A stretch of 64,000 nucleotides of DNA, from the sequence record MF327008, one strand, 5' to 3'. Origin of the DNA: Shigella phage Sf24. The notes beneath the pieces are model-generated. The model was not told the DNA's origin. It was given only the letters and a program-made list of their open reading frames with translations, and searched no databases. Numbering within the stretch: position 1 is the stretch's first letter; every line of letters begins with the position of its first letter. Made by a program: the position numbers and the translations under genes. This document shows positions 126-62,793 of the stretch, one piece after another.

Positions 126-160
126 TAATTATACCACATCCTTGTGGTAAAGTAAACTAC
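126..160 (-). promoter_or_regulatory. T4-type early promoter
   Basis: minus strand reads GTTTAC ...17 nt... TGGTATAAT; inverted repeat CCACA/TGTGG between the boxes. Confidence 0.6.
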
Positions 161-3516: not shown

Positions 3517-3786
3517 TTAATTGAACAGTGGAGCGATGCGTTTCAGAAGAGTAGCAGCACCTTTGGCAAATTTTACATCATGAAAAACAGTTTCTTCTTC
3601 CGTTACAACACGAGCTTTAATGTTTTCACAATCCCAATTTTTGCGAACAATCTTCAAAAGCTGCAGTAAATCTTTACATTCAGCAATATCGATAACACAT
3701 CCACGAGGATCTTCCATTATCGCACGATAACCGTAAGCCATACCATAATCATTGAAAGATTGCTCGATGATAATTAAATTTTCCAT
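3517..3786 (-). CDS. hypothetical protein
   Basis: start at internal Met MENLIIIEQ preceded by GGAGAA; track N-terminal extension reads through leader. Confidence 0.55.
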   Translation of the reverse strand: MENLIIIEQSFNDYGMAYGYRAIMEDPRGCVIDIAECKDLLQLLKIVRKNWDCENIKARVVTEEETVFHDVKFAKGAATLLKRIAPLFN

Positions 3787-3810
3787 TTTATTCTCCAAGT
3801 TGTTTTCTGT

Positions 3811-3853
3811 ATCAGTAGTTGATATTGATATAGTACCATAATCAACTACTGAT
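3811..3853. repeat. perfect 13-bp inverted repeat with 17-nt spacer in the leader/promoter region
   Basis: ATCAGTAGTTGAT ... ATCAACTACTGAT; spacer contains TATAGTACCA. Confidence 0.7.
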
Positions 3854-3893
3854 GTATATAGTTTTATGAAAAAATTTTAAACTTTATGCAAAT

Positions 3894-5945: not shown

Positions 5946-6629
5946 TTATCGTTTTGTTGGAAGAGATAGAGGATCGCAATCTTCCTCTGATGGAGCATCT
6001 TCAAGACCCATAGCATATCGCAAAGCGTACTTCATCATCAGGATGTCTTTCGCACAGTCATGAATAGAATCATGTGCAACGAATCCATCTAAAGTTCCCT
6101 TTGGAAGAGGACATGTGGTCATATCACGAACAAGCAGAAGTGCTTCAATTCTGGTACGAATATCACGCTGATTCCAAAATTTACAAGGTTCTAACTTAAA
6201 TGTATCAAGCTCATTCTCGGAAACGCCGTTAAGACGTTGAATATCGCGAATGAGATCGACTAAAATTGGAAAATCAAACGACATTCCACGGCACCAGCCT
6301 TGAGATTTCCAAGGATCGATATTATGCGCATTGATGTAATCATTAAATTTTGCAATACCATCGATAGTGCTTACATCTTCATCTGATGGCGCAATATTTT
6401 TTCGAGCTTCAGGAGATTGATTCTTCCACCATTCGATAGTGCTTTTAGTAAAAAGACGATGTCCTTTTTGGCTTTTTAAATCAAATTTGATTTTAATGCC
6501 ACGTGAAACTAATTCATCAAATGTTTCAACGACTTCTGGATTAGGGTCAAAAGCAATTACAGCCAAATCAATAACAGCTGCTTTTTCACCGCTTCCCATT
6601 GTTTCAAAATCTATAATAAAATCAAACAT
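5946..6629 (-). CDS. dexA: exonuclease A (DEDDh 3-5 exonuclease)
   Basis: 227 aa as T4 DexA; MFDFIIDFETMG motif. Confidence 0.85.
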   Translation of the reverse strand: MFDFIIDFETMGSGEKAAVIDLAVIAFDPNPEVVETFDELVSRGIKIKFDLKSQKGHRLFTKSTIEWWKNQSPEARKNIAPSDEDVSTIDGIAKFNDYINAHNIDPWKSQGWCRGMSFDFPILVDLIRDIQRLNGVSENELDTFKLEPCKFWNQRDIRTRIEALLLVRDMTTCPLPKGTLDGFVAHDSIHDCAKDILMMKYALRYAMGLEDAPSEEDCDPLSLPTKR

Positions 6630-6871
6630 TAAATTTTCCTTGCTAAATCGCGAATTTGACCTACAGTATAATCTTGGATATAAACTTTATTAATAGGCTC
6701 ATCAATAAATTTTGCCATAGATTCAATATCTTTTTGTATCTCTTCAAGACTGTATACTATCTTTAAAGCTTTTTCGCGAATAGTAATATTTTCAGGACTA
6801 GAATTTTCCTCAATGACAGCTTTAACATTTGTCATAAGAGATTTAAACTGATGCAAACTTAATTCAATCAT
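6629..6871 (-). CDS. hypothetical small protein (dexA.1-position), paralog set
   Basis: likely start at internal Met; similar C-terminal segment to next ORF. Confidence 0.5.
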   Translation of the reverse strand: MIELSLHQFKSLMTNVKAVIEENSSPENITIREKALKIVYSLEEIQKDIESMAKFIDEPINKVYIQDYTVGQIRDLARKI

Positions 6872-13363: not shown

Positions 13364-13395
13364 CTATTATACCATACTCATTTTGGAAAGTAAAC
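13364..13395 (-). promoter_or_regulatory. T4-type early promoter
   Basis: GTTTAC ... TGGTATAATA on minus strand. Confidence 0.6.
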
Positions 13396-13410
13396 CATTT
13401 AAATGAAAAA

Positions 13411-13430
13411 AGGACTCCCGAAGGAGTCCT
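13411..13430 (-). terminator. intrinsic terminator after soc
   Basis: AGGACTCC-CGAA-GGAGTCCT hairpin followed by U-run on minus strand. Confidence 0.65.
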
Positions 13431-14622: not shown

Positions 14623-14682
14623 TATTTTTCCTTTCAATTCATTAATAAGTTAAATAATTATATCATTTGAGTATGTAAGCAA

Positions 14683-16022
<1,340 letters not shown>

Positions 16023-16045
16023 TATATCATCCTCAGCAATTTGTT

Positions 16046-16079
16046 TTATAATACCATAACAAGCTGAGAAAGTAAACAA
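16046..16079 (-). promoter_or_regulatory. T4-type early promoter driving nuclease-like ORF, dam and 56
   Basis: GTTTAC ... TGGTATTATAA on minus strand. Confidence 0.55.
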
Positions 16080-16115
16080 ATTTATGATAAATATTAATTT
16101 AAAGGAGGACGACGC

Positions 16116-24399: not shown

Positions 24400-24636
24400 T
24401 CAAATGCAAGTAGTAATTACTCCAGTAGTGCTTATGCAGGTATTACCCATTTGCACACCTAAAGATCCATTTGTATTCACATGAAGATTATCATCAATTT
24501 TAACTGATATTTTACCATTAGTGTGAATAACGGTGCTAGATTCAATCACAGGTTGAGTATCATTTTCAACACTAACAAATGGAACTGCTGCTAATGCAAC
24601 TAAACAAACTGCTAAGCATCCCATAACAATTTTCAT
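24400..24636 (-). CDS. small secreted protein
   Basis: signal peptide; GGAGAA RBS; shared leader cassette. Confidence 0.55.
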   Translation of the reverse strand: MKIVMGCLAVCLVALAAVPFVSVENDTQPVIESSTVIHTNGKISVKIDDNLHVNTNGSLGVQMGNTCISTTGVITTCI

Positions 24637-24667
24637 TTTATTCTCCAAATCCGTATTAGTTGATAGT

Positions 24668-24700
24668 TGTATAGTACCATGGAAGAACAGGGATGTAAAC
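24668..24700 (-). promoter_or_regulatory. T4-type early promoter within repeated promoter cassette
   Basis: GTTTAC ... TGGTACTATAC; cassette sequence recurs at four other sites. Confidence 0.5.
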
Positions 24701-24787
24701 AGTTTTGTGAAAAATTTTTAATGAATTTACAGGACCTAGAATCATCTGTTTTTCATAAGTATAGATTTATATTACTTGTATGAAAAA

Positions 24788-46765: not shown

Positions 46766-46800
46766 CATTATACCACATCCTTGTGGCAAAGTAAACTAGT
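46766..46800 (-). promoter_or_regulatory. T4-type early promoter, copy of the promoter at 126-160
   Basis: TTATACCACATCCTTGTGG(C/T)AAAGTAAACTA shared with window start. Confidence 0.6.
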
Positions 46801-49187: not shown

Positions 49188-49715
49188 TTATGCGAGTACC
49201 GTCTTTAACCGTTCTTCAAACTTCCGAAGAGTATTCTGGCGTTCAGCTCTTTGCTTTTTATAAGTTTCAATACGCTCTGAAATGAGAGTGTATCGTTCAT
49301 TTACTGATTCTTTCATAAAATCAGGAATTTCACGAGAAGCTTTAATCTCGTCAAATTTATCAATAACAGCTTGCTCTTCAACAATTAAGTTATCATACAT
49401 CAAAATATCTTTCTTGATGAACTCAATATCTTCTTGAGTTACACGAGATAATTTAGATGCTTTATCCTTTTTGTACTGTTCATTAGTATCACGAGACCAG
49501 TGTAATGTACGATTTTTATTCGTATTTTTGTAAATTTCTACAATACCAATCTCATCGATAATAACGATCCAATTCCAACGAGATTTGTAAATTTGTCCTC
49601 CGTCAACCGTGATTTCACCTCCGATTGAGATGTCATTAAAGAACTTGCTTTGTGCTTCAGATTTAAATTTACCATCATTGTAGTTTACCAAGTTGAAAAT
49701 ATCTTTAGCATTCAT
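49188..49715 (-). CDS. hypothetical protein
   Basis: start MNAKDIF with GGAGGA RBS; track extension reads through promoter. Confidence 0.55.
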   Translation of the reverse strand: MNAKDIFNLVNYNDGKFKSEAQSKFFNDISIGGEITVDGGQIYKSRWNWIVIIDEIGIVEIYKNTNKNRTLHWSRDTNEQYKKDKASKLSRVTQEDIEFIKKDILMYDNLIVEEQAVIDKFDEIKASREIPDFMKESVNERYTLISERIETYKKQRAERQNTLRKFEERLKTVLA

Positions 49716-49740
49716 TTTCTGTTCCTCCGTAGTTGATAGT

Positions 49741-49775
49741 TGTATAGTACCACAGAGGAACGGTCTTGTAAACAA
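49741..49775 (-). promoter_or_regulatory. T4-type early promoter in repeated cassette
   Basis: GTTTAC ... TGGTACTATACAACTATCAAC. Confidence 0.5.
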
Positions 49776-50090
49776 CTAAAAGAAACTTCTTTCACAATTT
49801 TTTCCACTGAACCAAGCGCTCACTGCTTTCTTAGTCTCAGGAGCAGTGTTATCCATAAACCATTCAAAAGCAGCCTTTTTATGATTCTGGAGGGCTTCTC
49901 GGGCTTTAATCTGCTCACGGTCTATTAACACTAACATATGAGCCTTTCTTGTCACCAAGGGCTTCTTATGATTTTTTGAATACTCCCAATCATTTGTCCA
50001 TCGCATCGTTGTTGCGAACTGAAATACTGCTTCTTTAATTTTAGTTTCGTAAATTTCACGAGCCTTTGAGTATAACATCATTACCTCCAT
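49776..50090 (-). CDS. hypothetical protein
   Basis: 104-aa ORF. Confidence 0.5.
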   Translation of the reverse strand: MEVMMLYSKAREIYETKIKEAVFQFATTMRWTNDWEYSKNHKKPLVTRKAHMLVLIDREQIKAREALQNHKKAAFEWFMDNTAPETKKAVSAWFSGKNCERSFF

Positions 50091-50179
50091 TTACCAGTTT
50101 AATTCTAGTCATCTTTTTGATGGCAGTCCATATAATCTATTTCTGAACTGCCTTTTTATCTTAGAAGGCCTCTTATGAA

Positions 50180-51148
50180 TTATTTCAGAAGAGTAACCTC
50201 AGCGATTTCTTCCCAACCGTTTTTGTCGGTCATAATAAAGTCAGCAAGATAAAGAGCAGTACGCAGTGAAACATTGCGTAAACGATTAACATTGACTTTC
50301 ATCCATGATAATGCTTTATAAGTTTCTTCATCAGAAAGACCGCGCTTTTGCATCATGTCAGTTGAAAGAATAACATCTTCAACCCTGACCATAATTTCTT
50401 CATTAGTGTGAACACCCAAATCCAAATAAACTGAGCGGGACACTAATGCTTGTAAGTGTGGGGCAAGTTTAGTACCACGGTCTAATTCGCGGTCAATGTC
50501 AACGTTTGTGATAAAAACAATCGTTCCTTTAAATTCAAACTCACGCTCAATGCCTTTTTCTTCTAAGTAAGAAGATGCAGTGCTCCAGCAGACTTTACGG
50601 GTCTCTCCAGTGTCCAGAGCAGCTTTTAGAAGATTAAGAATGTCCATATCAGAGAAAACATCCACATCATCAATCAAAAGGACAGAATTCTCTTCACGAT
50701 TATTCCAAAGCTGTTCATAAAGACCAATACCAGAGATTTTACCATTAATGCTTTTATACTCAATGTATCCAATATCATTTGCTTTATTTAAAGCTTTATC
50801 TAAAGAATACGTTTTACCAATACCTGCTGCTCCCGAGATAATTAATGAACGAATGTTTCCGTTAATAATACCATTCGTCATCATTCCCATAACATTAAAT
50901 CTTTTATTAATGCGGGTTTTCATATCTTCATACGATTCTTTAACTTCTTCAACTTTTACACCATCATATGAAATGTCTGATTTGTAAACCCAAACACCGC
51001 GACGTTTACCGTCAATTTCAACAAAAACTTTACCATCTCCTTGTGCATCTACCGGAGCATTATCCGGGAACCATTCGCCTAAGAGCTCAAAAGTTCCAGA
51101 GATTTCTTTACCGAAGTAGATACCCTTATTGATAGTTACAGTTTTCAT
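50180..51148 (-). CDS. AAA+/P-loop ATPase
   Basis: Walker A GAAGIGKT, Walker B VLLIDDVD; start MKTVTINKG with GGAGAA RBS. Confidence 0.65.
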   Translation of the reverse strand: MKTVTINKGIYFGKEISGTFELLGEWFPDNAPVDAQGDGKVFVEIDGKRRGVWVYKSDISYDGVKVEEVKESYEDMKTRINKRFNVMGMMTNGIINGNIRSLIISGAAGIGKTYSLDKALNKANDIGYIEYKSINGKISGIGLYEQLWNNREENSVLLIDDVDVFSDMDILNLLKAALDTGETRKVCWSTASSYLEEKGIEREFEFKGTIVFITNVDIDRELDRGTKLAPHLQALVSRSVYLDLGVHTNEEIMVRVEDVILSTDMMQKRGLSDEETYKALSWMKVNVNRLRNVSLRTALYLADFIMTDKNGWEEIAEVTLLK

Positions 51149-51180
51149 TTTATTCTCCAAATCCGTATCAGTTGATAGTT

Positions 51181-51216
51181 GTATAGTACCACAAAGCTTT
51201 ATGCTTGTAAACAGTT
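51181..51216 (-). promoter_or_regulatory. T4-type early promoter in repeated cassette
   Basis: GTTTAC ... TGGTACTATAC. Confidence 0.5.
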
Positions 51217-51243
51217 TTGTGAAAAATTTTTGAAATAAAAAAA

Positions 51244-51261
51244 AGGGAGCCCGAAGGCTCC
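51244..51261 (-). terminator. intrinsic terminator
   Basis: GGGAGCC-CGAA-GGCTCCC hairpin with U-run on minus strand. Confidence 0.65.
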
Positions 51262-51264
51262 CTA

Positions 51265-52278
51265 TCATTTATAATAACTTCGGTGGTTTTCAAGATAGAC
51301 CTTCTCAAGGAAGTCATCCCAAAAACTCATGTCTACTTTTTGCTGCATACCGTTCTTAGAAGCTTCAGTAGATGCTGCTTCTACTTGATCGACCACATCT
51401 TCCAAAAACTCTTGAACCGTTTTAAATGGATGCTTACCCAACTTCACGTCGAGAATAAAGGGAGCATCTTTGAGTGGATAAATCAAGTCGCCAGTTTTGT
51501 AAATTTCCAATAGTTGAAGTCCACCACGACAAGCATGACTCAGAGCTTTCCAATCAATACCTTCATTAGCTTCGGCTTTACGAGCACGTTCACCATATTC
51601 AGCATCTAATTTGTTCAGTGACTGCTTAAGCTCAATAAGAGAAAGCGTTGTCTGATATTTACGACCCAATACAGTGTAGAACGTTTGTGGGCCTGTTTTC
51701 TTATGATTATGGAACACCCATTCACAGAATTCGTTTTCTGGAAGACGATGCTTAATATCTTCAACTTTAGTGCGACGCTGCTTAATAGAACCATCTTCTT
51801 GGTAATCAACCCATTGCTCAGGGATTTGATTAACTACTTTCAATACATCGCGTAATGCAGCCAAACGAGAACCCTTGACACCATATTTAGAAGCTTGCTT
51901 GCGAACATATCCTAAATAGGATTTCATGTTAGTCGTATAAAAACGAGAACGGTTGTCTTGAATAAACTTCCACACATCAGGCAAATCAGATTTAACCACT
52001 AGTTCAGGTGGAGTGTGAAGCATATCCAATGCTACAGTTTCACCATCTGCTGCTAATTTAAAGAAATATTTAAGACTGTATAGTTCATGGTCAATATCAT
52101 CTTTAGTGTTTTTAGATGATGTGTTATTAGTGTTTTTACTCATGTGCTCTTTGACATTTCCGATAAGAATATCACGAGCAGGAGGAACAAAAATTTCTTT
52201 AAAATCTACATCAGATTCTGGGGTAGAAGTTCCATAAAGATGACTACCAAAATAGCTTTTCATTACTGTTTTCATCAT
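51265..52278 (-). CDS. nucleotidyltransferase-fold protein
   Basis: GSHLYGTSTPESDVD matches pol-beta-type GS...DxD signature. Confidence 0.55.
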   Translation of the reverse strand: MMKTVMKSYFGSHLYGTSTPESDVDFKEIFVPPARDILIGNVKEHMSKNTNNTSSKNTKDDIDHELYSLKYFFKLAADGETVALDMLHTPPELVVKSDLPDVWKFIQDNRSRFYTTNMKSYLGYVRKQASKYGVKGSRLAALRDVLKVVNQIPEQWVDYQEDGSIKQRRTKVEDIKHRLPENEFCEWVFHNHKKTGPQTFYTVLGRKYQTTLSLIELKQSLNKLDAEYGERARKAEANEGIDWKALSHACRGGLQLLEIYKTGDLIYPLKDAPFILDVKLGKHPFKTVQEFLEDVVDQVEAASTEASKNGMQQKVDMSFWDDFLEKVYLENHRSYYK

Positions 52279-54540: not shown

Positions 54541-54728
54541 TATTCCACCACATATGAAAGAGAGAATATTGCACACGCCATGTGAGTTGCAACTTCATCA
54601 CACATATTATAACGTTTCTTAAGAAATTCTACAAGTTCTTCACTAGTAACTTCATCCATGTCGACGAAAAAATCACCATTAATGATGACGTAGATATTTC
54701 CTTCTTGATTGAGTGCTTCAATTTTCAT
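54540..54728 (-). CDS. hypothetical small protein
   Basis: start MKIEALNQ with GAGGAG RBS after promoter cassette. Confidence 0.5.
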
Positions 54729-54754
54729 GATGTTCTCCTCTTTATCCGATAGTT

Positions 54755-54787
54755 GTATAGTACCACAGCTCAAACGGAAAGTAAACC
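54755..54787 (-). promoter_or_regulatory. T4-type early promoter in repeated cassette
   Basis: GTTTAC ... TGGTACTATAC. Confidence 0.5.
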
Positions 54788-54802
54788 GGTAAAATGAAAA
54801 AA

Positions 54803-54818
54803 GTCTCCCGAAGGAGAC
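54803..54818 (-). terminator. intrinsic terminator
   Basis: GTCTCC-CGAA-GGAGAC hairpin followed by U-run on minus strand. Confidence 0.65.
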
Positions 54819-54823
54819 TAATG

Positions 54824-59126: not shown

Positions 59127-59157
59127 ATTATACCACAGTCAAGAGGAAAAGTAAACA
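59127..59157 (-). promoter_or_regulatory. T4-type early promoter upstream of regB
   Basis: GTTTAC ... TGTGGTATAAT on minus strand. Confidence 0.6.
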
Positions 59158-59158
59158 A

Positions 59159-60615: not shown

Positions 60616-61115
60616 TGCATTCCGATTATGAAAAACTGTGGACGAGTAATACCACCAATGCAACATTTAATATTACAGCAGCAGTGTACAGTGTCAATAT
60701 GGACACTATAAATCTTATCCATATCAGGAGATTTGACAGGCTCGTCAATTATATACAAAATTCGCGAAAGCGATAAACCTCTGAACTTACTTCCTTTATT
60801 ACCGATAAAACTACGGACAGAATCGGTAAATAAACGGAATCGAATATCATCGCTAGAATAACGAGAAAATTCTTTTTTAATGTGGCCTGCAGAAATTTTA
60901 GCGTAAGCTGAAGTATTAGAAAGAACAATAACTGTTCCACCGTCATACAACCAATTAGCGGCAAAATTAGTTACTGCAGTTGATTTACCAGATTGACGTC
61001 CACCATCTAGTCGAAGTGTGCAGTACTGTTTAAGTAATTCTTCAAATGGCGGGATATATTCGTTTTTACAAATTTCTTCTACTCTAGCGTCAGAATGGTG
61101 TGTAAAAGCATTCAT
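60612..61115 (-). CDS. small P-loop NTPase
   Basis: Walker A GGRQSGKST; Walker B-like IIDEP. Confidence 0.55.
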   Translation of the reverse strand: MNAFTHHSDARVEEICKNEYIPPFEELLKQYCTLRLDGGRQSGKSTAVTNFAANWLYDGGTVIVLSNTSAYAKISAGHIKKEFSRYSSDDIRFRLFTDSVRSFIGNKGSKFRGLSLSRILYIIDEPVKSPDMDKIYSVHIDTVHCCCNIKCCIGGITRPQFFIIGMQ

Positions 61116-62225: not shown

Positions 62226-62259
62226 AATATACTATCACAATTCTAGGAGAAAGTAAACA
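62226..62259 (-). promoter_or_regulatory. T4-type early promoter upstream of denV
   Basis: GTTTAC and TGTGATAGTAT on minus strand. Confidence 0.45.
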
Positions 62260-62262
62260 ACT

Positions 62263-62793
<531 letters not shown>

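Follow-up and report, generated by a model that had tools for sequence, protein, structure and literature searches.

Repeated early promoter-leader cassettes, probably paralogous, in the early-gene region of Shigella phage Sf24

Introduction

Several short blocks, each combining an early promoter with a translation leader, recur in the early region of Shigella phage Sf24. Are they related by descent and do they take part in gene shuffling, or are they alike only in the way that all strong promoters are alike? The DNA that was analysed (the window) is a stretch of 64,000 nucleotides from record MF327008. It covers the early-gene region of this Tequatrovirus from rIIA.1 to e, in which the minus strand encodes the early genes. 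The window is 96-98% identical to KRT47, Aplg8 and similar phages, and Sf24 is a Tequatrovirus isolate different from T4.

With a probability of about 0.85, judged from the sequence comparisons described below, the repeats are early promoter-leader cassettes of a T-even phage that are paralogous to one another. We demonstrate here their sequence anatomy, copy number and mosaicism, as well as their junctions in related genomes. The repeats are real, yet already known, as the concept has been published (Repoila 1994; Arbiol 2010; Comeau 2014, for T4/PST).

Anatomy of the repeats

Every repeat listed in the earlier note was recovered at the positions given there, far above chance. All elements lie on the minus strand, whereas that note had quoted the plus-strand complement. 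The sequence GTTGATAGTTGTATAGTACCAC is found at 24659, 49732, 51171 and 54745 with 1, 0, 0 and 3 mismatches, respectively (0 expected from 100 shuffles), and TTTCATTTTATTCTCCAAAT is exact at 24631 and 51143 with a two-mismatch version at 3781 (0.12 expected by chance). A repeat search of the window gave a 72-nt family with members at 3816, 24657, 38957, 49730 and 51169 and a 54-nt family whose members at 24626 and 51138 are 96% identical.

The minus strand of the window contains 18 GTTTAC-N18-TAnnnT sites upstream of a ribosome-binding site and an ATG. Their consensus, ...AaaatttttcAtAaA.TtGTTTAC...TgTGGTAttATA, agrees with the UP/-35/TGn/-10 description of T4 early promoters (Hinton 2010 review, PMC2988021) and with the PeSL consensus of PST/T4 (TTTACW-N17-TAYWAT, PMC4122927), and the general layout consists of a UP-like A/T tract, GTTTAC, a TGn-extended -10, an unstructured leader, a GGAG ribosome-binding site and ATG. 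The T4 GenBank records NC_000866 and AF158101 carry no annotated promoter features. Lists of T4 early promoters are reportedly found in Wilkens & Ruger and in Miller et al. 2003.

A distinct sub-family that shares TGGTACTATACAACTATC comprises four copies, located upstream of the imm.1-proximal ORF, nrdC.8, nrdC.10 and mobD.5; TACTATACAACTATC is exact at 4 sites. All four copies read GTTTAC-N18-TACTAT with TGG preceding the -10. Over the 15 nt after the -10 hexamer, they are 73-93% identical pairwise, compared with 40% ± 15% for other pairs of early promoters in the window, so the identity extends past the generic hexamers, to which, as the earlier note had allowed, it might have been confined.

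The cassette of nrdC.10 (51146..51265, minus strand) has orthologous copies in T4, T2, T6 and RB51. It contains a terminator hairpin at 51263-51244 (AGGGAGCC-TTCG-GGCTCCCT and a T-run), which is followed by the UP-like tract TTTCAAAAATTTTTCACAAAACT, the -35 GTTTAC at 51212-51207, an 18-nt spacer with TGG at its end, the -10 TACTAT at 51188-51183 and the leader ACAACTATCAACTGATACGGATTT, in which GGAGAATAAAA occupies 51158-51148 and the ATG 51148-51146. The imm.1-site cassette (24634..24728, minus strand) precedes a 78-aa ORF that itself precedes imm.1. Its -35 is at 24700-24695, its -10 at 24676-24671, and its leader ACAACTATCAACTAATACGGATTT carries GGAGAATAAAA at 24646-24636 and the ATG at 24636-24634. 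The A/T-rich UP-like tract AAAAATTTTTCACAAAACT is found at both of these copies, which differ only in the spacer, at a single base of the leader and in the outermost 8 nt of the UP tract.

The nrdC.8 cassette (49713..49801, minus strand) has its -35 GTTTAC at 49773-49768, the -10 TACTAT at 49749-49744, the leader ACAACTATCAACTACGGAGGAACAGAAA and the ATG at 49715-49713. Its -35 begins 2 nt past the nrdC.9 stop codon (49778-49776), and its UP tract is weaker because it is located in the 3' end of the nrdC.9 coding sequence. In the mobD.5 cassette (54726..54819, minus strand), a hairpin at 54819-54802 (AGTCTCC-TTCG-GGAGACT and a T-run) precedes a -35 at 54786-54781, a -10 at 54762-54757, the leader ACAACTATCGGATAAAGAGGAGAACATC and an ATG at 54728-54726. 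The upstream half of this cassette is like the promoter at 13395, and its downstream half belongs to the TACTATACAACTATC family.

A terminator hairpin is present just upstream of the nrdC.10, mobD.5 and 13395 promoters and absent at 49773, whereas that of the 24700 copy probably lies about 100 nt upstream, judging from the partial window sequence and the RB51 orthologue. The earlier note had described the blocks as PeSL-like promoter-leader cassettes. They do consist of early promoter, leader, ribosome-binding site and ATG, but the stem-loop that defines a PeSL lies directly upstream in only two of the four copies (51212 and 54786).

The relative that had been placed at 3786-3881 is present and diverged. 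It spans 3784..3887 (minus strand), precedes a small ORF (RB51ncORF009c homologue) next to cef, and comprises the UP tract TTTAAAATTTTTTCATAAAACT, TGG TACTAT at 3835-3830 and the leader ATCAATATCAACTACTGATACAG...TTGGAGAATAAAATG with an ATG at 3786; this is the copy that matches TTTCATTTTATTCTCCAAAT with two mismatches. Its -35 at 3859-3854 is ATATAC instead of the GTTTAC of a T4-type early promoter, and ATATAC is conserved in T4, T2, T6 and RB51.

The proposed duplication of the promoter at 126-160 at 46766-46800 corresponds to a 32-nt minus-strand pair, namely the early promoters of rIIA.1 (128..159, GTTTACTTTACCACAAGGATGTGGTATAAT) and nrdC.4 (46767..46798, GTTTACTTTGCCACAAGGATGTGGTATAAT). 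They are 97% identical, spacer included, with unrelated flanks, and the sole A/G difference between them follows the locus in T4, T2, T6 and the window.

The copies are mosaics, put together from upstream, spacer, -10 and leader modules that are exchangeable. The assembly of the TACTATACAACTATC sub-family from such modules is mildly new, in a descriptive sense only.

An invariant module near the transcription start

The TGGTACTATACAACTATC(AAC) module, which extends roughly from -16 to +6, might be more than a part of the promoter: it could be an operator, or another recognition element, that sets apart a co-regulated subclass of early promoters and serves in Alt-dependent stimulation or early shut-off, in addition to its promoter role and not necessarily in place of it. 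The spacers and leaders around it vary, while the module itself is a discrete block that stays unchanged at 4-5 loci in five genomes, and the basis of both Alt stimulation and early shut-off is not understood according to reviews (PMC2988021, PMC3014915). However, the module has no dyad symmetry, no candidate binding protein was found, and the conservation is explained equally well if the copies are identical by descent and selection acts on the discriminator and start site. In addition, RB69 has a single match, upstream of e.8, which is only 76% identical. We consider an operator unlikely, and it is slightly less likely still that the invariant block defines a separately regulated subclass of T-even early promoters. 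If it did, the TGGTACTATACAACTATC block and the exact RegB/S1 sites of some copies would make up a 'fire hard, then silence' module that acts at the DNA and RNA levels.

Junctions in related genomes

Four reference genomes (T4, T2, T6 and RB51) were compared with the window for insertions and deletions. At the nrdC.10 site, T2 has an extra gene, ORF097, which is flanked by two copies of the terminator-promoter unit (hairpin, UP tract and -35). In T6, the junction of a 3.1-kb deletion falls within the -35 of two promoters, at TTGTTTACTTT, and the product consists of the upstream half of the 62258 promoter and the downstream half of the 59156 promoter. The imm.1 site has three alleles across T4, T6, T2 and RB51: the promoter is kept, the downstream ORF is absent, of type A or of type B, and the leader type switches.

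About 20% of the roughly 31 indel events in this comparison touch a promoter cassette. Homing-endonuclease genes account for a comparable or larger share, and the remainder are indels of promoter-less ORFs. Breakpoint edges fall in cassettes in 7 of 69 cases although cassettes make up 3.4% of the sequence (P = 0.009 under a uniform null; against a gene-junction null the enrichment would be weaker). The PeSL-like gene shuffling suggested in the earlier note is partly supported by cassettes at real junctions in T2, in T6 and at the imm.1 site, but most indels of the region are elsewhere.

The four reference genomes show no indels at the 49773 or 54786 copies. Recombination between neighbouring PeSLs is expected to yield deletions or mini-circles. 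None of 796 matching phage records, however, covers at least 80% of a chimeric 165-nt query that represents the predicted deletion (nrdC.10-nrdC.9) between the 51212 and 49773 promoters, the two copies at the ends of the interval 49715-51225. The phage collection likewise contains no junction of the 54786 and 51212 promoters: 491 records reach at least 80% coverage, but they align at ~86% identity as the ordinary mobD.5 locus and are not recombinants. Two other candidates were rejected. The deletion of 3578-3777 in T4 and T6 is internal to an ORF, occurred at an AAAATT microhomology and is unrelated to the cassette. Beside the 16077 promoter, the edge of an insertion falls at the start of a divergent ORF, 9-30 nt before the -35, and outside the promoter homology.

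In summary, early cassettes are occasional crossover points for the gain, loss or swap of small genes in T-even phages, as was previously known.

Common descent versus convergence

The cassette is carried by 556 phage records, nearly all of them Tequatrovirus, mostly in 6-9 copies per genome. Such a family could in principle be produced by functional convergence on an information-rich promoter and ribosome-binding site consensus, with no shared descent and no role in recombination. The T4 early promoter consensus is known to extend beyond the hexamers (PMC2988021), and the 24700 and 51212 copies agree in all functional elements and differ in the spacer. Function also explains a part of the leader identity. 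The RegB/S1 strong-site consensus is GG*AGRAYARAA (Durand et al. 2006, as relayed in PMC3014915), and in the window GGAGRAYARAA is exact only at 3786-3796, 24636-24646 and 51148-51158, with 0.35 matches expected by chance. These are the three leaders that carry GGAGAATAAAA, and this 11-nt consensus covers part of what they have in common. That the GGAGAATAAAA leaders of the TACTATACAACTATC sub-family are exact RegB/S1 consensus sequences is again mildly new and purely descriptive.

However, the leader identity of ~30 nt is above any known requirement, and particular copies also agree in their spacers, for which no constraint is known. In the window, this applies to the promoter pairs 157/46796 (97%) and 18990/53974 (89%). 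The T2 promoter at the imm.1 site is nearly identical to that of T2 nrdC.8 from the -35 to the ATG, spacer included (24964/50278), and the T6 copies at 24.5 kb and 65.2 kb (24549/65179) have 68 identical nt in common. Furthermore, the indel junctions of T2 ORF097 and of the T6 deletion lie inside shared tracts, and such mosaic junctions argue against convergence. Convergence as the whole explanation is quite improbable, and the similarities point strongly to common descent with recombination.

Exchange between copies must be rare because orthologous copies are more alike than paralogous ones. For the same reason, concerted evolution between paralogues was rejected: no convincing gene conversion was found, and the only candidates are single-base ones, a G to A change in the RB51 nrdC.4 promoter and AATCTTGT in the window's 18990 promoter.

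It is very doubtful that the cassettes are autonomous MITE-like or integron-like elements that a dedicated recombinase mobilises. Each genome has several copies (6-9), one gene cassette in T2 sits between two copies, and mini-circles have been detected in RB49/phi1 (Arbiol 2010, PMC2839356); against this, the copies occupy orthologous positions in all five genomes, neither terminal inverted repeats nor target-site duplications were seen at the inspected junctions (T2, imm.1 site, T6), the cassettes have no associated recombinase gene, and the crossover points vary inside the shared tract as homology-driven exchange would have it.

Least credible of all is a structured cis-regulatory RNA (riboswitch, thermosensor or translational operator hairpin), for which the conservation of the 5' UTR across paralogues would speak: five leaders fold no better than their shuffles (MFE 0 to -2.7 kcal/mol, z from -0.5 to +1.1), and an Rfam scan of the whole window returned no family at gathering score.

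Proposed mode of action

Promoter activity, RegB cleavage and the recombination pathway are carried over here from established T4 biology. By orthology with T4 and according to the reviews, host sigma-70 RNA polymerase would be recruited immediately after infection by the UP-like tract, the GTTTAC -35 and the TGn-extended -10 TGGTACTAT, and the conserved discriminator and start region ACAACTATC would contribute to this. The transcript would begin with a short unstructured leader containing a GGAG Shine-Dalgarno sequence. Because this sequence is an exact RegB/S1 consensus in three copies, the corresponding early mRNAs are predicted to be well translated and then inactivated by RegB cleavage. 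An unstructured site is required for such cleavage according to the review PMC3014915. Where a terminator hairpin is found just upstream (nrdC.10, mobD.5), the downstream gene would be insulated transcriptionally, and this arrangement is that of the published PeSL. Since the cassettes share tracts of 20-75 nt, the phage's own homologous recombination would occasionally cross over between them.

The repeats confirm a textbook T-even feature, namely that very strong, information-rich early promoters are reused as portable expression units. The window offers clean cases, drawn from public genomes, in which accessory genes are added or removed by a promoter-to-promoter crossover, among them an ADP-ribosyltransferase-like gene in T2. 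These help with the annotation of the window and with catalogues of accessory-gene flux in Tequatrovirus, and leave the current understanding unchanged.

Comparison with known systems

There is no essential difference between the cassettes and the T4 early promoters (Pe), and the TACTATACAACTATC sub-family is a subset of them, not a separate class. In both, the -35 is GTTTAC, the -10 is TGn-extended, an A/T UP-like tract is present, the spacing is 17 bp as conventionally counted, and the promoters precede early genes of the counter-clockwise strand. Orthologous copies occur in T4 itself, in front of imm.1, nrdC.8, nrdC.10 and mobD.5.

The leaders resemble RegB/S1 strong sites in that GGAGAATAAAA overlaps the Shine-Dalgarno sequence and the ATG in three of them; these are predicted cleavage sites. 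The nrdC.8 and mobD.5 leaders have GGAG without the full 11-nt consensus.

In T-even phages, the IP locus has shuffling elements (Repoila et al. 1994, cited through PMC2839356), which are early promoters with adjacent or overlapping dyad symmetry on either side of the variable internal-protein genes found between e and denV. They include the 62258 promoter of the window, where T4 has ipII and ipIII inserted behind similar promoters. Unlike the TACTATACAACTATC family, these elements have a TAGTAT... -10/leader module and a palindromic spacer.

PeSLs have been reported in RB49/phi1 (Arbiol et al. 2010, PMC2839356) and in PST/T4 and nt-1/KVP40 (Comeau et al. 2014, PMC4122927), with the consensus TTTACW-N17-TAYWAT in T4/PST (Comeau et al. 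2014, PMC4122927). All four copies described here read TTTACA/TTTACT-N17-TACTAT followed by a GGAG-type Shine-Dalgarno sequence and ATG, which fits that promoter consensus. They differ from PeSLs in that the nrdC.8 copy has no stem-loop, that of the imm.1-site copy probably lies about 100 nt upstream, and most indels in this region are not PeSL-linked. The assignment of the cassettes to the class termed PeSLs in T4/PST by Comeau et al. 2014 is partly supported by their sequences: they combine an AT-rich tract, an early promoter, a Shine-Dalgarno sequence and ATG, with an upstream terminator hairpin at the nrdC.10, mobD.5 and 13395 copies, and, like PeSLs, they are multi-copy and located in hyperplastic early regions, at indel or replacement junctions of close relatives.

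Repeated early promoter cassettes in the window

A 3-kb stretch surrounding the interval 49715-51225 matched 829 phage records, 494 of them at 95-99% identity. The matching records belong to Tequatrovirus (T2, KRT47 and others), where the flagged region is annotated as nrdC.7 to nrdC.11. Matches to the first 8 kb start at rIIA.1 and the topoisomerase gene, with window position 1 lying near RB51 coordinate 2291, and by the annotations of RB51, T4, T2 and T6 the window spans rIIA.1 to e/nudE. Nearly all window genes are on the minus strand. Hence, the motifs quoted in the earlier note, which had reported repeated promoter-leader blocks here, have to be reverse-complemented to give the functional strand.

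In minus-strand orientation the parts of each copy are, in order, an A/T-rich tract, GTTTAC, 18 nt of spacer with TGG at its end, TACTAT, ACAACTATC..., a Shine-Dalgarno sequence of the GGAG type and ATG. The window contains 18 sites of this kind, every one on the minus strand and upstream of a ribosome-binding site and start codon, with the consensus AaaatttttcAtAaA.TtGTTTAC...TgTGGTAttATA. The four flagged minus-strand copies, named here by their -35 positions, precede the 78-aa ORF before imm.1 (24700), nrdC.8 (49773), nrdC.10 (51212) and mobD.5 (54786). A diverged relative at 3859, upstream of a small ORF adjoining cef, has the non-consensus -35 ATATAC, which is kept in T4, T2, T6 and RB51. 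This small ORF carries an internal deletion in T4 and T6 (window 3578-3777) at AAAATT microhomology, and in T4 the promoter, leader and first codons remain as an unannotated remnant at about 6483-6652. The nearby direct repeats 3925-4017/4357-4449 and 4228-4275/4726-4773 (71-77% identity, 432-498 nt apart) are motB and an adjoining motB paralogue (RB51ncORF010c, annotated 'similar to motB'), a tandem gene duplication absent from T4 and T2.

The 22-mer GTTGATAGTTGTATAGTACCAC is found at 24659, 49732, 51171 and 54745 with 1, 0, 0 and 3 mismatches, respectively (chance expectation, none), and the 20-mer TTTCATTTTATTCTCCAAAT at 24631, at 51143 and, with 2 mismatches, at 3781. An unbiased repeat search of the window returned the same loci and the pair 128-159/46767-46798 at 97% identity, which represents the rIIA.1 and nrdC.4 promoters (157 and 46796). 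Both the recurring blocks and the duplicated promoter claimed earlier are therefore present. Their identity extends beyond the generic hexamers, as an exact TACTATACAACTATC is common to all four flagged copies and the 15 nt after the -10 hexamer are pairwise 73-93% identical, versus 40% ± 15% for other pairs of early promoters in the window.

The 24700 and 51212 copies differ in the spacer, one leader base and the outer 8 nt of the UP-like A/T tract, and agree in the proximal 22 nt of this tract, the -35, the -10, the rest of the 34-nt leader and ATGAAAA. A spacer is also shared within the pairs 157/46796 and 18990/53974, between the imm.1-site and nrdC.8 promoters of T2, and between the 24.5-kb and 65.2-kb copies of T6, which have 68 identical nt. 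The hairpin/UP/-35 half of the 54786 copy is that of the 13395 promoter, and its -10 half is that of the nrdC.10 promoter. These shared and exchanged parts indicate that the family consists of mosaics assembled from a small number of modules (upstream, spacer, -10 and leader). The invariant TGGTACTATACAACTATC block is very unlikely to be the mark of an early-promoter subclass under separate regulation.

A functional reason can be given for some of the leader identity. The shared GGAGAATAAAA conforms exactly to the published RegB/S1 strong-site consensus GG*AGRAYARAA (PMC3014915), and the 64 kb contain no exact match beyond the three leader copies spotted in the earlier note. Early mRNAs with GGAGAATAAAA leaders are thus predicted to be efficient RegB targets. 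The cassette leaders are unstructured upon folding, and no Rfam family matched anywhere in the 64-kb window.

Stem-loops

The proposed likeness to promoter-early stem-loops (PeSLs) holds strictly for two of the four copies, the other two being early promoter-leader cassettes without an adjacent stem-loop. A G+C-rich hairpin with a TTCG loop followed by a T-run lies directly upstream of the promoters at 51212, 54786 and 13395 (hairpins at 51244-51263, 54802-54819 and 13407-13426, with a common C-TTCG-G tetraloop core). Two of these hairpins have CTCCTTCGGGAG in common, followed by TTTTTTCATTT..GGTTTACTTTCC. The similarity of the hairpins and the shared sequence that follows suggest that the hairpin/UP/-35 half is a repeated module itself. 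No stem-loop is present upstream of the 49773 copy, since the UP region there is formed by the 3' end of the nrdC.9 coding sequence. Judging by partial window sequence and the RB51 orthologue, the terminator nearest to the 24700 copy is probably about 100 nt upstream.

Gene gain, loss and exchange at the cassettes

Junctions were inspected in alignments of the window to T4, T2, T6 and RB51. T2 has an additional 486-nt ORF between nrdC.11 and nrdC.10 (cassette at LC348380.1 6148-6884, corresponding to window 51196-51263), flanked on both sides by a terminator hairpin, TTTTATTTCAAAAATTTTTCACAAA and GTTTAC. At its nrdC.10 site the window contains exactly one such unit and lacks the ORF. The 161-aa product is ADP-ribosyltransferase-like, about 29% identical to ModA/ModB-type genes, and about 44 phage records besides T2 carry the ORF, among them Citrobacter phage Moon (94% amino acid identity).

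In T6 a 3.1-kb segment between e and regB is missing; by the RB51-based annotation it comprises denV, an Ip4-like gene and vs.3 to vs.8. The T6 junction (window 59127-59158 and 62228-62274; T6 MH550421.1 about 60990-61060) is a hybrid of the denV promoter (62258), which supplies the upstream half, and the regB promoter (59156), which supplies the downstream half, with the crossover inside TTGTTTACTTT, which is common to both. In T4, ipII and ipIII are inserted at the site of the 62258 promoter and lie behind similar promoters; this is the case of Repoila et al. 1994 as summarised in PMC2839356.

At the imm.1 site the promoter is kept in all compared genomes. The leader continues directly into imm.1 in T4 and T6. 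In the window an nrdC.10-type leader is followed by a 78-aa ORF, and in T2 and RB51 an nrdC.8-type leader is followed by an unrelated 83-aa ORF, with the point within the promoter at which the leader type switches differing between T2 and RB51. The window's allele is common (324 phage records, one place each). Its 78-aa ORF (24400-24636) begins with a signal-peptide-like or lipoprotein-like sequence (MKIVMGCLAVCLVALAAV...).

Of the 69 distinct breakpoint edges counted across the comparisons, 7 lie within cassettes, whose share of the window is 3.4% (binomial test with a uniform null, P = 0.009; this null flatters the enrichment because indels favour gene boundaries anyway). The suggested role in gene shuffling is supported by independent junction evidence at the T2 nrdC.10 site, the T6 deletion and the imm.1 site, as rare events only.

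By our own grouping, the breakpoint intervals represent about 31 distinct indel events, of which roughly 6-7 are linked to promoters. Homing-endonuclease genes (mobA, segF, segA, mobB, mobC/segH, I-TevII, mobD and seg-like genes) are involved in about 9 of these 31, and the remainder are small ORF indels at promoter-less gene boundaries. The deletion predicted from recombination between the 51212 and 49773 copies, which delimit the flagged interval, was absent among 796 matching records, and the predicted 54786/51212 junction was likewise absent from phage records. Orthologous copies are more alike than paralogous ones, so exchanges are rare in evolutionary terms and the copies are not being homogenised at present. 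As a separate observation, a 1.44-kb segment (14662-16106) is shared by the window and T2; it carries dam plus a 546-nt ORF behind the 16077 early promoter. RB51 and T6 lack this segment, and T4 has dam only. The upstream edge of the segment coincides with the start of a small divergent ORF on the plus strand and lies outside promoter homology.

Comparison with known elements

The 101-nt nrdC.10 cassette matched 3,838 places in 556 phage records, typically 6-9 per Tequatrovirus genome, and some depositors annotated 'promoter' or 'terminator' at these places. RB69 has one match (76%, upstream of e.8). The cassette is a genus-wide feature and is not peculiar to the window.

Dyad symmetry within or around the spacer and -10 is seen in two promoter pairs, 128-159/46767-46798 and 18953-18990/53937-53974, one with CCACAAGGATGTGG and the other with ACAAGAnTA...TAnTCTTGT. 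Unlike the TACTATACAACTATC family, these pairs recall the palindromic promoters of the IP locus.

The window sites have the same 'UP/-35/TGn/-10' architecture as that described for T4 early promoters (PMC2988021) and also fit the PST/T4 PeSL consensus TTTACW-N17-TAYWAT (PMC4122927). PeSLs were defined in RB49/phi1 by Arbiol et al. 2010, who demonstrated mini-circles and noted analogous elements built on T4 early promoters at T-even IP loci (PMC2839356). The concept was extended to the PST/T4 pair, with the 43-51 kb region among the regions covered, by Comeau et al. 2014, who proposed that PeSLs mediate exchange (PMC4122927). In summary, the finding was already known, as the PeSL concept has been published for RB49/phi1 and PST/T4; the observation of the earlier note is confirmed and, within the limits described, its interpretation is essentially the published one.
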